This document shows positions 24,223 through 30,494 of a DNA stretch of 32,000 nucleotides, one piece after another (the first letter of the stretch is position 1; each line of letters opens with the position of its first letter). A program made the translations under genes and the position numbers. The DNA is taken from the NCBI GenBank assembly GCA_019056805.1, contig DXJG01000001.1:1-32000 (forward strand). Reading direction: 5' to 3'. The notes below the pieces were generated by a model that made no database searches, was not told the DNA's origin, and saw only the letters and a list, made by a program, of their open reading frames with translations. This DNA is from Candidatus Baldrarchaeota archaeon (GTDB lineage: Archaea; Asgardarchaeota; Baldrarchaeia; Baldrarchaeales; DXJG01).

Positions 24223-25146
<924 letters not shown>

Positions 25147-25381
25147 AGGTTATCTCGACCTATTGTTTTCCGGAGTGTTTTTTATTTCTATTTCTAAGCG
25201 GTTTTCGTCGATACCAAAACCTAGGATAAGCTCTGGGTTGCAGTTTGAATACCTCCAACTCCCACCGAATTTCTTGAATTATTATAATATTCTATTCTTT
25301 AATATATTTTTTGAGAATAAACTCAAATTTTTTTGACAAAAACTTTGTAGAAAAAAGACACTTGTATTCTAAGACCTTTTA

Positions 25382-27661
25382 CTACTTAGTTAATTTACTG
25401 CCAACTAGAAAATTTAGAAAGTCTTGATCAATGTTTTTCGCATATATAGATGTATAGGGGCCTGTTAACCTAGTATTGTACATTAGTTCTTCAAATCCAC
25501 GGTTACAGATGGGACAGGCCCTTAAAATTCCTTGATTTATCTCTTTACAATTTAGACAATAGGTTGAGCTTCTTGTATACGCAAAGAGTCCGATGTTATT
25601 GGCAAGAATATTATTTGTAATATCCTTAAGTTCATTAAATTCTCTAGAATTATTGTCTAAGTTTATGTTAAGGATGTGTCCACCCCTTAGATATGTATGT
25701 GTACTATTTGCCAATTTTATTTTTTCAAGAGTAGAGAGATTCTCTGTTGCAGGAATTACGTTGGTGGAGTAAAAGGGTGGTGTAATATCCTTATAGTTTT
25801 TGAAAATTCCTTTATTCAATTTTAAAAATCGGAGAGAAGGTTCGACATCGGGTGATTCCATGAAATTTAATCTGAGGTCATGTTCTATGCTTATTTCTTC
25901 AGCTATTTTTTCGGAATTCTTCAATATTCTCATTAAAAAGTTTTGTGTATCTTTTTCGCTGATGGAATTTGAGGTATGAATTTGAGCCGCCTCAGGTAAA
26001 CCAACATAACCTATCATGTAAGTTGCTGTTTCCTCTCTAAAATAGGGTTCATTATCTATTTTAAGGTTTAATAGCGGTAATAGCTTGTCTATTGATGATC
26101 TTTTTCGTACTTCATCTCTCTTAATTAGAAATGCTTTTACTGCACAATTTATTGTGTCATTAAATTCTTCGAAGAATTTATCATCATCTCCTTTAGCGAG
26201 AAGTGCTGTTCTTACCATATTTATAGCTATCCAAGCCATACAACATGTTCTAATCGTGTCAATTTTCCAATTTCTTTTATAGTTTGAATCAAACCTGTGA
26301 AGTGATGCGCTGTAACTGGTATTAGGTAGTTGCCAATCTAAGGTTAGATTGGCATAAAGCGGCTGTCCTCTTTCGATGGAAAGCTTAAGAACTTTGTCAA
26401 ACTCCTCTAAATCTATGTTTCCTTTGCGAATTTTGAAAACTAGTTGTGGTTGAGTGTATGGAAGTCCACCATCTCTTCCTTTTCTAAAGATCTCTATTAA
26501 TGCTCTTAGTATATTTCTTGCTTCCTCCTGATATTCACCGTATGTACCGTCTTCCTTGCCTTCAAAGCTAATAGCTGGTTCATTTTCCAAAAAAGAAGGA
26601 ACTGAGAATTCTAAATTAAATGTAATAATTGTTTGATTCCATTTTCTGTTTAAAAATTCTATAATCTTTTTTAAAATATTTTTTATTTTTTCGTAGTTTA
26701 TTGATTTAAAAAGTGGTGCTAAGAATATATTAAAGAAGTCTATTGTTTGGAAAAAAGAGAAATGTGTATCAAATATATTGAAAAGGTTATAAAAGTACAA
26801 TGGAATGTCATAAACATCTCTTGGTGGTATTAATGGATTAAAAGTAATATTTTTAGAGTTTAGTGATATATCCATCTTTAAGATTAAAGAAAGATCGTGT
26901 TGAATACCGTAGGGTTTTAATATCCAATAGTTTGCTTGTGGTATATGTATCCTCCCGGATAAGTGCGCATCGGCCACTTTCCTGGGCAGTACCTTTAGTA
27001 AAAGATACTGTTCGAACACGGAATCTCCAGCAAGTCCTCTAGCCAGTTCTGGGTTTGGAAATGATGATTTTTTACCTGCATTTTTGACAAGTTGAGAAAC
27101 GTCATAAACTGGGAGTCCTAAACGTGTTAGTGAATGACGGTATTCTTCTAGTCCTTTTTCAAGCAAAATGGCGTTTACAAACTCTCTTATTAAGGGTGCG
27201 GTTAGATATTTTACTTTCAGTTTAAATAGTCTATCTTCAGCTTCTTTTGCTATTTCTTCAGCCAACTCTTGCGGTACCCCTGCCTCTCTTTTTAGTGCCT
27301 CAGCGATTTTACTTCGGTCAAATCGTTCCATTTTTAGCCTTGAAGTTCTGACAAATATTTCTCCGAATTCTCTTCTTCCAAAATCATCTAAAAGCCATAA
27401 AAAGTCTACTACATTCTCCCCCAGAGGAGTTAAAAAATATTTACCAGTTTTCTCATCAGATATTACGAGGTTTGCATCTCTAAGTTGATTCAGATGATAA
27501 GCAAACTTGCCTGCGTCTGTTTTTGGCGTCATGCCAAGTTCATACATTATTTCAGTAAAAGAAAGCAGTTTTTTTCTACTGAGAAGTTTAAGTATTTCAA
27601 CTCTTAGGGGACTAGATATTGCTGATAATACACGAAACGAAAAATCAAATTTTTCATTCAT
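25382..27661 (-). CDS. nrdD: ArsR-type wHTH + ATP-cone + class III ribonucleotide reductase (NrdD)-fold protein; catalytic residues appear lost
   Basis: Residues ~1-95 form a wHTH (SPLRVEILKLL...AGKFAYHL..L....LV...Y.LT..G). ATP cone VRTS...E.FDRSKIA...LTAPLIREFVNA.L. NrdD-like motifs LSGRIHI, QHDL, G.PY..P, DTIRT, IGYVGLPEA, GGHI, CxxC-CxxC, RLTG. Confidence 0.85.
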   Translation of the reverse strand: MNEKFDFSFRVLSAISSPLRVEILKLLSRKKLLSFTEIMYELGMTPKTDAGKFAYHLNQLRDANLVISDEKTGKYFLTPLGENVVDFLWLLDDFGRREFGEIFVRTSRLKMERFDRSKIAEALKREAGVPQELAEEIAKEAEDRLFKLKVKYLTAPLIREFVNAILLEKGLEEYRHSLTRLGLPVYDVSQLVKNAGKKSSFPNPELARGLAGDSVFEQYLLLKVLPRKVADAHLSGRIHIPQANYWILKPYGIQHDLSLILKMDISLNSKNITFNPLIPPRDVYDIPLYFYNLFNIFDTHFSFFQTIDFFNIFLAPLFKSINYEKIKNILKKIIEFLNRKWNQTIITFNLEFSVPSFLENEPAISFEGKEDGTYGEYQEEARNILRALIEIFRKGRDGGLPYTQPQLVFKIRKGNIDLEEFDKVLKLSIERGQPLYANLTLDWQLPNTSYSASLHRFDSNYKRNWKIDTIRTCCMAWIAINMVRTALLAKGDDDKFFEEFNDTINCAVKAFLIKRDEVRKRSSIDKLLPLLNLKIDNEPYFREETATYMIGYVGLPEAAQIHTSNSISEKDTQNFLMRILKNSEKIAEEISIEHDLRLNFMESPDVEPSLRFLKLNKGIFKNYKDITPPFYSTNVIPATENLSTLEKIKLANSTHTYLRGGHILNINLDNNSREFNELKDITNNILANNIGLFAYTRSSTYCLNCKEINQGILRACPICNRGFEELMYNTRLTGPYTSIYAKNIDQDFLNFLVGSKLTK

Positions 27662-27800
27662 AGTAATACACCTAACCTAACTGGAATTTTCGATGAATGT
27701 TTTTTTATGTAATTTAAGACCCTTTATGTTTCAATAAGAGAATTGATTTGTAAATATTAAATTATGTTAAAATTATTTAACGATTTACAGTTAAATGAAT

Positions 27801-28526
27801 TTATGTTAAGGGATTCAATTTTCTGAGTTTTTGAATAAGTGATTCAATATCTTCGATAAAAGATACGGCAAGAAGAATTCTTTCCTTTCTTGCCAGTTCA
27901 GTAACCATGGAATCTATTTTTCTAACACCATGTAAAACAATCAAGCTAGGTTTTTCTTGACTACCTCTAATAGCGACTAGTGGTAGTCTACCAGTACTGA
28001 TATTTGTGAATATTAGCGTACGTTGAACAGACGCTTCGAAAAGCTTAGTAAATGCCTCTCCTGAAAGTTCTCTCATTGCTAATCCGCCATCAATAATTGT
28101 GTACCCGTAAACGTCTTGTTCAAGTAATTCTTCACATGCAACAGGTTGAGCGTTTATTGCTTCACAAAAATGATCCATCTTGACAGGGGAAGCGAAATCT
28201 CTGATGTCTAAAATAATGTCTGTGGGAATCTCAACTCCCATTAATCTTCCAAACGCAGAAATAATTTGACCACCATTTTCCTCGTCAATTGTTAAAAGAA
28301 TATTAACAAATCTCTTAACAGTTTTTGCACCTGGAGATTTCCGTCTCCCGCTTTCGTAATCGCTTATAACTGACGGAGAAACACCTAATTTCTCTGCTAA
28401 AGTAACTTGAGAAACGTGGAATATCTCTCTCCATTTGCGCATGGTCTTACCGGGATCGTTCGAAAGAGATATTTCCCCTGCAATTCTTCTAGCAAGTCTT
28501 TCTTTAACAATGTTTGAAATGCTCAT
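27801..28526 (-). CDS. Conserved archaeal XRE/Cro-C1 HTH transcriptional regulator (COG1709-like)
   Basis: RIAGEI.LS.DPG.TMRKWREIF.VSQ..LA..LGVSPSVISDYESGRRKSPG, with C-terminal GYTIID and ALIFT-like motifs. Confidence 0.88.
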   Translation of the reverse strand: MSISNIVKERLARRIAGEISLSNDPGKTMRKWREIFHVSQVTLAEKLGVSPSVISDYESGRRKSPGAKTVKRFVNILLTIDEENGGQIISAFGRLMGVEIPTDIILDIRDFASPVKMDHFCEAINAQPVACEELLEQDVYGYTIIDGGLAMRELSGEAFTKLFEASVQRTLIFTNISTGRLPLVAIRGSQEKPSLIVLHGVRKIDSMVTELARKERILLAVSFIEDIESLIQKLRKLNPLT

Positions 28527-28883
28527 GTTTTAAGTTAAATAACGCCAATTACATAAGTTTTTCGATCATTAAGACAAGTGTCGAAAGGGTATAAGATAAG
28601 GATAAAAATTTAAAACTCTCTCTAAAGGTTATGGTCTCACTGTTCACACTTTTTAATTTGATAAATTGTATTAAGATTTGTTAATAATGTCCACTGACTG
28701 TTTTTATCCTTCCTTTTCTCAAAATTATAATGCTCGAGGAGAAATTATGCAAATATATAGTTCAACAATTGCTGTAATGAATAAGAAACACAAAATTTGG
28801 TATTTTTCCTTATCAATACACAAGCACTTTTTAATATTTAATGAATTTGAATGTTAAAAATTAGATAATCAATGAAAACGGTG

Positions 28884-28990
28884 TGGTGGGGCCGCCGGGA
28901 TTTGAACCCGGGACCAGCAGCTCCCGAAGCTGCCATCATACCAAGTTTCCCGCCCGATGAAAAACTCATCGAGCTCTAGACCACGGCCCC
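28884..28990 (-). tRNA. tRNA-Pro(CGG) with a 30-nt D-loop intron (28946-28975); CCA encoded
   Basis: The spliced product GGGGCCGTGGTCTAGCTTGGTATGATGGCAGCTTCGGGAGCTGCTGGTCCCGGGTTCAAATCCCGGCGGCCCCACCA forms a cloverleaf with anticodon CGG. The insert folds as a 9-bp hairpin within a relaxed BHB. Confidence 0.93.
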
Positions 28991-29123
28991 CACAATGCTA
29001 TACCACACGATATACATTTAATGACGTATGTTTAAGTTTAGCGGTCTCTAAAATATAAGAGTATTATTCTTCGCTCCTTACTGATTCTTTCACAAGTAGA
29101 GAGGATGTGTATTTTACAGTTTA

Positions 29124-30494
29124 TCATAGTTTTCCTTCTTTTCTTAAGATTCCTCTTGCGGCAAGGATTCCTGTTGCTGCCGCGGTCACAATTCCTCTGG
29201 AGAGACCTGCGCCGTCACCGGCGACAAAGATGTTTTCTACACTGGTTTCAAGGTTTTCGTTAACTTCAACTCTATTTGCGTAGAATTTAATTTCAGGAGC
29301 ATATATTAGTGCAGATGAACTAGCAACACCGGGCATCACGTAGTCTAGTTTCTCAAGTCCCTCTAGAATATCGGTAACAATTCTATGGGGTAAAGCCATA
29401 GCGACATCCCCAGGTGTTACGTCCCTCAATGTGGGCTTCACATTACTCCGATCAATTCGTGACCAAGTTGAACGTCTACCTTTTTTGAGATCTCCTAATC
29501 TTTGAAGAATTGGTTTTCCTCCACCTATGGTAGTTGCTAATTTGGCTATTGAGAATCCGTAGGCGGTTGTGTCTTCAAGCGGTTCGGTGAGTTCAACTCG
29601 AACTAGAAATGCAAAATTGGCATTTTCAGATTTTTGTTTGATTAGAGTGTGGCCGTTAACACCAACGATATCTCCGTAGACTTCTTGGACGACGAAGCCT
29701 CGATAATTAACGCAAAATACACGTGTAAGGTCATCGAAGGTTTTTGTATATACACGGAATTTTGGATCCTTGGCTATTTTTATTACTGGTTCCATTACAA
29801 CAGCTGGAACCTCTACCCTTACGCCTATATCTATTGGTTGTGGATGTGTTTTTATTCCAAGTTTTTTCGCTTGTTCCTGAAGCCATTGTGCTCCAATTCT
29901 TCCTGGAGCCACGATTATATATTTTGTTTGTATTTTTTGTCCATTTTCAAGCTTTACTTCTCCCTTTTTAAAGTCCACAACCTTCATTCCTAGTATGAAT
30001 TTTACGTTAACTTGTTCTAGTGCTTTTTTAAATTCTGCAATTACTTTAGGAGCGTTATCAGTGCCTATGTGTCTTTGCGGTATAGGTACAAATTCTATTC
30101 CTACGGCTGCGGCTTTTCTCATTAAGCTTTCTACTTGATCTGTGTTTGCTCTGTATATTTTTGAAGGTGCTCCGTATTTTAGAAAAACTTTATCCACTTC
30201 TTTCACGAGTTCCCATGCTTCATCTCTACTTACAAATTCTTCAAGATTCCCTCCAATATCAGGTCTTAAATTTAAAAGTCCACTTGAAAGAGTCCCGGCT
30301 CCTCCTACTCCACACATTATTTTACAGGGACTACATTTGCTGCAATAGGAATATATCATGGCTGGACATTTTCTTTTCGCTACATCAGGTCCCCAATCAA
30401 TTACAGTAATTTTCAGATTAGATTTAGTTGCCAATTCATGTGCAGCAAACATGCCTGCGGGCCCTGCACCTACTATTACTACGTCAGTTTTCAT
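29124..30494 (-). CDS. FAD/NAD(P)-dependent oxidoreductase (COG2509-like)
   Basis: Rossmann motif IVGAGPAG, Cys cluster CP....CSKCSPC...CGVGGAG, RHIGTD, DIGVRVE, YAPEIKFY, VAGDGAG. Confidence 0.88.
   Translation of the reverse strand: MKTDVVIVGAGPAGMFAAHELATKSNLKITVIDWGPDVAKRKCPAMIYSYCSKCSPCKIMCGVGGAGTLSSGLLNLRPDIGGNLEEFVSRDEAWELVKEVDKVFLKYGAPSKIYRANTDQVESLMRKAAAVGIEFVPIPQRHIGTDNAPKVIAEFKKALEQVNVKFILGMKVVDFKKGEVKLENGQKIQTKYIIVAPGRIGAQWLQEQAKKLGIKTHPQPIDIGVRVEVPAVVMEPVIKIAKDPKFRVYTKTFDDLTRVFCVNYRGFVVQEVYGDIVGVNGHTLIKQKSENANFAFLVRVELTEPLEDTTAYGFSIAKLATTIGGGKPILQRLGDLKKGRRSTWSRIDRSNVKPTLRDVTPGDVAMALPHRIVTDILEGLEKLDYVMPGVASSSALIYAPEIKFYANRVEVNENLETSVENIFVAGDGAGLSRGIVTAAATGILAARGILRKEGKL

Follow-up and report, generated by a model that had tools for sequence, protein, structure and literature searches.

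Why would an archaeon keep a class III ribonucleotide reductase (RNR) gene whose product carries a predicted DNA-binding domain at its head and has lost the residues of catalysis? This question is raised by a gene at positions 25382-27661 (minus strand) of the stretch of DNA analysed here, namely positions 1 to 32,000 of contig DXJG01000001.1 from a Candidatus Baldrarchaeota archaeon (assembly GCA_019056805.1). This whole stretch of 32,000 nucleotides is called the window below. The genome to which it belongs (G000) comprises 1.92 Mb in 18 contigs and is 91% complete. A sequence-only reading of the window had described the gene product, P0001, as a fusion of a winged helix-turn-helix (wHTH), an ATP-cone and a dead NrdD, and had suggested that it is a pseudo-enzyme reused as a nucleotide-responsive regulator. 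We followed up this idea by computational analyses. We propose that P0001 is a non-catalytic class III RNR paralogue that serves as a nucleotide-responsive regulator with DNA-binding activity; deoxynucleotide supply is its most likely target. We give this reading a probability of roughly 0.55.

The open reading frame (ORF) at 25382-27661 is unbroken and has 759 codons. Pfam detected DUF7347 (38.4 bits) and HTH_5 (35.2 bits) at residues 11-87, ATP-cone (27.7 bits; cut-off, 25.8) at residues 104-174 and NRDD (PF13597; 216.6 bits) at residues 204-736. Thus, the three-part architecture that had been read from the sequence was borne out on an intact ORF. The NCBIfam equivalog model for NrdD (TIGR02487) gave 224.9 bits, which is under its cut-off of 326.35. 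The gene and its parts are as follows.

25382-27661, minus strand: whole gene, encoding the wHTH, ATP-cone and almost certainly catalytically dead NrdD-fold protein P0001 of 759 amino acids (ORF and translation, Pfam, and a model by AlphaFold2 (AF2))
27368-27661, minus strand: ArsR/SmtB-type five-helix winged helix, residues 1-98 (Pfam DUF7347/HTH_5, AF2, Foldseek, dimer model)
27476-27526, minus strand: putative recognition helix DAGKFAYHLxxL, residues 46-62 (invariant columns and modelled helix)
27104-27355, minus strand: ATP-cone of the archaeal NrdD subtype, residues 103-186 (Pfam ATP-cone, conservation, and the ratio of nonsynonymous to synonymous substitution rates (dN/dS))
25562-27103, minus strand: NrdD alpha/beta-barrel body without the catalytic residues, residues 187-700 (PF13597 and fold matches)

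P0001 keeps the predicted fold of NrdD and has almost certainly lost ribonucleotide reduction

The AF2 model of P0001 was built from 79 family sequences and had a mean predicted local distance difference test score (pLDDT) of 86.7 and a predicted template modelling score (pTM) of 0.75. The top Foldseek matches of this model were class III RNRs (9d3x, 8p23, 4coj and 1hk8; E-values from 1e-25 to 1e-16), which come from Streptococcus thermophilus, Prevotella copri, Thermotoga maritima and phage T4. As judged from the model, P0001 retains the NrdD fold and the zinc ribbon.

The catalytic positions were read by aligning P0001 to the intact NrdD of its own genome (P0002, described below) and to other archaeal NrdDs. 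The active-site assignments therefore rest on sequence alignments and predicted secondary structure. For the family as a whole, a search of a protein collection gave 673 matches; the family is described from the best 120 of these, and residue counts were made over 118 full-length members. The positions concerned are listed below.

26906-26908, minus strand: G252 at the Cys position of the beta-A strand (alignments)
26297-26311, minus strand: SASLH, predicted tip of the finger-loop hairpin, residues 451-455, with the invariant R456 next to it (alignments and model)
26240-26245, minus strand: C473-C474 pair at the RTG(N) position (alignment of 118 members)
25838-25858, minus strand: ESPDVEP, remnant of TPAES, residues 602-608, with Val at the Glu position (alignments)
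25505-25558, minus strand: CxxC...CxxC zinc ribbon, kept, residues 702-719 (alignment)
25454-25471, minus strand: RLTGPY, remnant of the glycyl-radical loop, residues 731-736 (alignment)

The sequence-only reading had assigned a Gly to the position of the beta-A Cys, at codon 26906-26908. The alignments gave the same residue (G252), and this column holds Cys in 0 of 118 family members versus 5 of the 5 canonical sequences aligned. The second claim concerned the finger loop, in which active NrdDs carry the thiyl-radical Cys as MGCR or MCCR. In P0001 the loop reads SYSASLHRF and there is no Cys in residues 440-472. Thus, the loss of the Cys stood. The proposed replacement by Ser stood only in part, because the residue that takes the place of the Cys depends on the alignment: it is S453 by one alignment and by the modelled hairpin tip (residues 451-455, between strands 449-450 and 456-457), and H455 if the alignment is anchored on R456. 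The other two claims on the active site held. The TPAES segment, which the NrdD of the same genome possesses, reads SPDVE in P0001, and in the RxxGY motif G734 is kept while the Tyr that follows it is Pro. Moreover, the NxN flap reads KNAG in P0001 versus ENAN in P0002. For P. copri NrdD, roles in substrate binding, in radical transfer and in holding the radical domain have been described for these elements, namely the NxN flap, the TPAES Glu and the Tyr that follows the Gly (PMC11226230). The four zinc-ribbon Cys residues (702, 705, 716 and 719) are all present. It is close to certain from these alignments that P0001 has lost ribonucleotide reduction. The claim of a pseudo-enzyme is well supported: the radical residues are gone, the NrdD fold is kept, an intact nrdD-nrdG pair lies elsewhere in the genome and the gene is under purifying selection.

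The same erosion is seen across the family. Each of the four zinc Cys residues is found in 118 of 118 members, R456 in 117 and N481 in all 118. Of the 118 members, 68 keep the radical-loop Gly, and the Tyr that follows this position is found in 10. About a dozen members, P0100 and P0113 among them, form a subclade in which the finger loop is still TGCR; this subclade has neither the beta-A Cys nor TPAES, and most of its members are also without the radical-loop Gly. By sequence, this subclade looks like a less eroded stage.

A residual enzyme with altered chemistry would use what remains, namely the retained G734, the zinc site with its four Cys residues and a new pair, Cys473-Cys474, on the strand after the finger loop. 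We consider this highly improbable. The Cys pair is confined to P0001, P0003 and P0004, and position 473 is Gly in 111 of 118 members; we therefore dropped the pair as a sign of new chemistry, since it is specific to the clade of P0001 and its two closest relatives. Among the 118 members, 50 are without the radical-loop Gly and 108 without the Tyr that follows. Furthermore, P0001 possesses no thiyl Cys, beta-A Cys, NxN flap or TPAES Glu, and the catalytic core is the least constrained part of the protein.

The gene is maintained by purifying selection

Selection was measured as dN/dS by the Nei-Gojobori method (NG86) against the orthologue at L061, whose protein is 89% identical. The value for the whole gene was 0.11. 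By domain, dN/dS was 0.023 for the winged helix, 0.013 for the cone, 0.11 and 0.16 for the two halves of the core, and 0.15 for the C-terminus. Columns conserved in at least 90% of sequences numbered 40 of 86 in the cone and 15 of 83 in the winged helix, and about 1 in 10 in the core. Thus, purifying selection acts on the gene, and it is strongest in the two N-terminal modules.

These data bear on the simplest explanation of a dead enzyme, that the gene is a decaying, functionless duplicate of nrdD. The catalytic residues are indeed lost, and the orthologue in one genome of the same order (L027; G007:C56:74558-76684) is interrupted by in-frame stops (a TAA and a TGA are reported). However, the frame of 759 codons in G000 is intact, the overall dN/dS is 0.11 and full-length orthologues occur in several archaeal phyla. 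The idea of decay is already contradicted by these data on selection and distribution. The L027 orthologue itself could be a pseudogene, or short BHB introns could account for its stops.

The N-terminal module resembles ArsR/SmtB proteins

Residues 1-100 were also modelled separately by AF2 (pLDDT, 94.4). In Foldseek, this model matched CzrA, CadC, SmtB, HlyU and DNA-bound NolR with template modelling (TM) scores of 0.72-0.77. Because of these matches, we regard the head as a full five-helix ArsR/SmtB module. In the putative recognition helix, A50, G51, F53, Y55 and H56 are invariant across the family alignments. Helix 3 of P0001 (residues 35-41) is free of Cys, and helix 5 (residues 79-99) contains neither His nor Cys. 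Therefore, the metal sites of the ArsR/SmtB sensors are absent.

We then considered the pairing of two chains. A complex model of two copies of residues 1-190 scored 0.47, and the best of three controls scored 0.00. In a benchmark of this score, the mark was reached by 20 of 30 proteins whose solved form is a pair of identical chains, compared with 1 of 23 whose solved form is a single chain. The model runs had at least 69% of contacts in common, with a partner pLDDT of at least 75, and the predicted interface consisted of residues 7-21 and 80-99 (helices 1 and 5). These models support an ArsR-type dimer of the N-terminal module. The score may reflect a likeness to known structures, because ArsR/SmtB dimers have already been solved.

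Thus, P0001 shares with the ArsR/SmtB proteins (CzrA, CadC, SmtB, NolR and HlyU) the five-helix winged helix, the HTH_5 match and a predicted dimer through helices 1 and 5. It differs from them in that the metal sites are lacking; the role of sensor would fall to the cone and the NrdD body that are fused to the head. DNA binding by P0001 is likely.

The ATP-cone is the only one detected in the genome

The cone of P0001 has the motif VRTSR..E.FDR.KI ... YLTAPLIREFVNAIL ... YRH.LTRLGLPV, in which R105, R175 and R180 are invariant in the family. It had been described as a close match to the cones of archaeal NrdD. This was correct in so far as the motif resembles canonical archaeal NrdD cones; VRTSR, however, replaces xKRDG, so that the Lys-Arg pair which binds the triphosphates is gone. 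In the P. copri cone, the triphosphates are held by Lys7, Arg8, Arg87 and Arg91 (PMC11226230). Cones of the xKRDG type occur in class II enzymes of related genomes, and the cone of P0001 differs from these.

In the 91%-complete genome, the sole match to the Pfam ATP-cone model (PF03477) is that of this gene (27.7 and 33.1 bits; cut-off, 25.8). Because the only ATP-cone match sits in the dead-NrdD gene, no NrdR is seen in the assembly.

Working RNR genes in this genome and in related genomes

The sequence-only reading had suggested a search for a second, intact RNR and its activase. Both were found at C6:160694-163066, on the same contig and 134 kb away. The intact nrdD (P0002) scored 560 bits on PF13597 and possesses AYCAGW, MCCRL, TPAES and RIVGYY. 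The nrdG gene is directly beside it (C6:160694-161251) and is the only NrdG match above the cut-off in the genome. A search of G000 for the large subunit of a class I or class II RNR found none. As had been noted from the sequence, there is no NrdG gene adjacent to the dead-NrdD gene; its neighbours encode an HTH_3 protein, a FAD-dependent protein, pyrB and pyrI. Two of these serve as context here.

27801-28526, minus strand: HTH_3 protein of 241 amino acids, directly upstream (Pfam)
24223-25146, plus strand: pyrB, convergent with the dead-NrdD gene (Pfam)

The active NrdD of G000 has no cone. In other genomes, the active NrdD bears its own cone. Two genomes, G052 (91% complete) and G044 (82%), have the family gene and a class II RNR, and a canonical nrdD was not found in them.

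These arrangements bear on a role at the protein level, in which the dead subunit would pair with the cone-less NrdD or with another partner and lend it the allostery of its cone, the winged helix being secondary or a tether. This would suit a genome in which the active NrdD is cone-less and the sole cone resides in P0001, and it would account for purifying selection on the dead core. Furthermore, the P. copri NrdD dimer has one active monomer at a time (PMC11226230). Nevertheless, we consider such a role quite unlikely. G052 and G044 have the family gene with only a class II RNR found, the active NrdD has its own cone in other genomes, and the wHTH (dN/dS, 0.023) is as constrained as the cone, with an invariant recognition helix.

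Two side observations concern the RNR genes of related genomes. Class II RNR genes at G023:C1:1195521-1198001, G012:C1:1427448-1429928 and G052:C78:9240-11858 lie in ORFs of 1155-1558 amino acids in which the Pfam match is split in two; they look like catalytic subunits with an intein or another insertion. A glutaredoxin/NrdH-like gene precedes the canonical nrdD in G038, G023, G012 and G007 (87-96 amino acids, four translated) and at L054 (108 amino acids; L054:8466-8792), and the nrdD of G000 is not preceded by such a gene.

A candidate operator lies at the nrdD promoter

No DNA-binding or regulator gene was found among the genes flanking nrdDG. In the promoter of the intact nrdD, about 30-50 nt 5' of the start codon, there is a perfect 20-bp palindrome, TTATCAAA-TTTT-TTTGATAA (G000:C6:163168-163187; L001:3334-3353). 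Three genomes of the genus (G000, G018 and G039) share it without any change, while the flanking promoter has diverged. G000 contains one perfect copy of it and zero copies with one mismatch. Its 14-bp core, TCAAATTTTTTTGA, has exactly two copies in 1.92 Mb: one is in the nrdD promoter and the other is close to the dead-NrdD gene. The following elements of the window are relevant here.

27662-27800, minus strand: intergenic region of 139 bp 5' of the gene, presumed to be its own promoter (sequence)
25323-25336, no strand assigned: second copy of the 14-bp palindrome core (genome-wide count)

The second core copy is 46 nt 3' of the stop codon of the dead-NrdD gene, in the gap of 235 bp to the convergent pyrB. 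We set it aside as evidence, since the corresponding sites of G018, G039 and the Odin loci lack it; it may be a T-rich terminator region.

The palindrome was also sought more widely. In a regulon search of G000, counts of the 14-mer TATCWAAAAAATTT were near those of a reversed-pattern control, and no regulon was obtained. Exact copies of TATCWAAAAAATTT in G038, G063 and G069 were mostly within ORFs. In G029, a genome of the same genus (82% complete) in which a family member was not found, the palindrome is absent at up to 2 mismatches. This genome has three matches with 3 mismatches, of which two were examined; neither is near nrdD. The inverted repeats between the family gene and nrdD at L052 and L054 were rejected as counterparts, being unlike the G000 palindrome. 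In another Asgard family, TATC[AT]AAAAAATTTTAGTAA is found upstream of the glutaredoxin gene (grx)-nrdD pair. The palindrome is a candidate operator; we do not take it as evidence for binding by P0001.

The family is widespread in archaea

Fusions of a wHTH and NrdD had been expected to exist in other archaea, and this was the case. The best 120 of the 673 matches are nearly all 735-799 amino acids long and carry the same three Pfam parts. Their source names include Odin-, Baldr-, Loki-, Hel-, Freya-, Njord- and Jordarchaeia, Methanomethylicota/Verstraetearchaeota and Bathyarchaeia, so that the fusion occurs in Asgard archaea, Methanomethylicia and Bathyarchaeia. The family comprises at least 118 clusters. 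Most members are labelled "anaerobic ribonucleoside-triphosphate reductase" at the source. A literature search found no paper on this dead-NrdD wHTH family.

Of 201 genomes sampled from the phylum, 13 in five families, including G000, have a near-full-length orthologue. The orthologue in G034 is split in two. In addition, ORFs of 650-712 amino acids in genomes of family f9 (for example, G040:C35:127030-128037 and G064:C9:57218-58225) match residues 9-350 of P0001 with 33-40% identity. This short variant adjoins a separate canonical, cone-bearing NrdD and may represent another, shortened branch of the family.

Gene neighbourhoods fit a probable origin by duplication of nrdD

At L052 the family gene is followed by a canonical nrdD on the same strand, and at L054 by grx-nrdD on the same strand. 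The downstream NrdDs of these two loci possess the Cys-Cys finger loop, TPAE, RxTGY, ENAN and a VRT-type cone. In G007, the family gene lies directly after pyrB and is convergent (tail-to-tail) with a canonical nrdD. Orthologues of pyrB are near the family gene in G000, in G007, in the Odin loci and at L052 and L054; the G000 pyrB is 67-68% identical to the pyrB-like genes of L052 and L054. Upstream of the gene in G000 (window positions 27801-30494) are genes for an HTH_3 protein of about 240 amino acids and a FAD-dependent protein of 456 amino acids (FAD-depend_C). This pair recurs upstream of the family gene in Methanomethylicia and Promethearchaeota loci (L050, L053 and L047), with the genes for HMG-CoA synthase (HMGCS), thiolase and DUF35 between. 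This arrangement is conserved across phyla. The neighbour sets taken together resemble fragments of a single ancestral gene order (FAD-dependent protein, HTH_3 protein, HMGCS trio, family gene, grx-nrdD and pyrB).

A duplication would fit the tandem arrangement with nrdD, and the family gene probably arose in this way from an archaeal NrdD gene with a VRT-type cone. Compared with such NrdDs, P0001 has the same fold from cone to zinc ribbon and shares VRTS..., LIRE.V, TRLG.P.YD and the QHDL strand, for example with the NrdD beside P0100. It differs from them by the lost catalytic residues, the TIGR02487 score below the cut-off, the extra ArsR-type domain and the lack of an adjacent activase.

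The neighbourhoods also raise the idea that P0001 is a DNA-binding regulator of another signal and another regulon, for example a growth or energy-charge switch acting on pyrBI or on the genes of mevalonate entry that adjoin it in many archaea. In its favour, pyrB is beside the gene in G000, G007, L052 and L054. The HMGCS-thiolase-DUF35 genes precede it on the same strand, at a distance of 40-87 nt, in loci of Loki, Promethearchaeota and Methanomethylicia. Moreover, the two genomes in which a canonical nrdD was not found (G052 and G044) carry the gene, and no operator in common with nrdD was found in its own promoter. However, the neighbour sets look like remnants of an ancestral gene order, from which co-regulation need not follow. 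P0001 is itself derived from an RNR and has an RNR-type cone, and no motif links it to the pyrB or HMGCS promoters. We therefore judge another regulon to be unlikely.

Proposed role of P0001

A nucleotide-responsive DNA-binding regulator fits all of the indirect evidence, namely the ArsR/SmtB head with its predicted dimer, the most constrained cone, the sole ATP-cone match of the genome and the nrdD neighbours in other genomes. The sequence-only interpretation as a whole, a pseudo-enzyme reused as a regulator, is partly supported. In the mechanism that we envisage, two chains would pair through the ArsR-type helices and probably also through the NrdD body, and this pairing would set two recognition helices on an inverted repeat. 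The only cone of the genome would bind an adenine nucleotide (ATP or dATP) and, via the dead NrdD body, would change the geometry or the oligomeric state of the DNA-binding heads. Transcription of the target genes would then track the nucleotide pool. In this genome, the operon of the cone-less nrdD and nrdG, with the palindrome in its promoter, is the foremost candidate for such a target. For P0001, both the sensing by the cone and the choice of target are what we infer.

Several observations weigh against this proposal. In the cone of P0001, Thr-Ser occupies the Lys-Arg positions of solved cones; because of this exchange, we say only that a VRT-type cone may bind a nucleotide. A sequence search of the PDB with the cone alone returned only designed helical proteins and no solved ATP-cone. 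The equivalent of the specificity-site hairpin (residues ~255-285) is poorly conserved and was modelled with low confidence; for this reason, the cone is the more likely sensor of the two. In the Loki, Promethearchaeota and Methanomethylicia loci described above, it is the HMGCS trio and not an RNR gene that the family gene follows. When the gene's own promoter was compared with the nrdD promoter in G000, L052 and L054, a shared motif was found no better than in shuffled sequences. Given its richness in A and T, the palindrome could belong to the promoter core or to a terminator of the gene upstream. Comparable A/T-rich strings occur at grx-nrdD promoters of other Asgard families (f18 and f13); these look like B recognition element (BRE)/TATA elements and were rejected as operators.

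A more specific form of the proposal is that P0001 is the analogue of NrdR in archaea that lack NrdR. In this form, the head would bind the palindrome of the RNR promoter, the cone would read ATP/dATP and the inactive NrdD dimer would relay the signal. We regard this as a tentative possibility. NrdR, which is composed of a zinc ribbon and an ATP-cone, shares with P0001 the logic of a DNA-binding module joined to a cone, and in some lineages the family gene adjoins RNR genes. P0001 differs from NrdR in having a winged helix instead of a zinc ribbon, a cone of the archaeal NrdD subtype without the Lys-Arg pair, and an attached dead enzyme body of 570 amino acids. There is no homology between the two beyond the cone, and no NrdR-box-like tandem sites were found. 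Because the cone lacks Lys-Arg and because binding and target are inferred, the comparison with NrdR is a reasonable functional analogy only. NrdR is rare in archaea (PMC9110341). If the analogy is true, P0001 would exert the overall-activity control of the cone-less active NrdD at the level of transcription.

The combination of a winged helix with an inactive enzyme fold that regulates the enzyme's own pathway has precedents. NrtR, a regulator of NAD metabolism, joins a Nudix-like domain to a winged helix, and Bacillus PurR joins an inactive phosphoribosyltransferase-like domain to a winged helix. In both, the ligand is sensed by the enzyme fold that no longer catalyses. Compared with these regulators, the scaffold of P0001 is a glycyl-radical RNR and is far larger, and the presumed ligand site is the appended cone, not the old active site.

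Little is known of how archaea regulate their deoxynucleotide supply at the level of genes, and this family, which is widespread in Asgard archaea, Methanomethylicia and Bathyarchaeia, is a testable candidate for such control. Because sources name its members anaerobic ribonucleoside-triphosphate reductase, metabolic reconstructions can wrongly credit a genome with a class III RNR, for example in the cases of G052 and G044. If the proposed role is true, the family would clearly illustrate how a radical enzyme can become the scaffold of a sensor. It could also reveal the path by which the signal of an ATP-cone travels through an RNR body that has been freed from catalysis.

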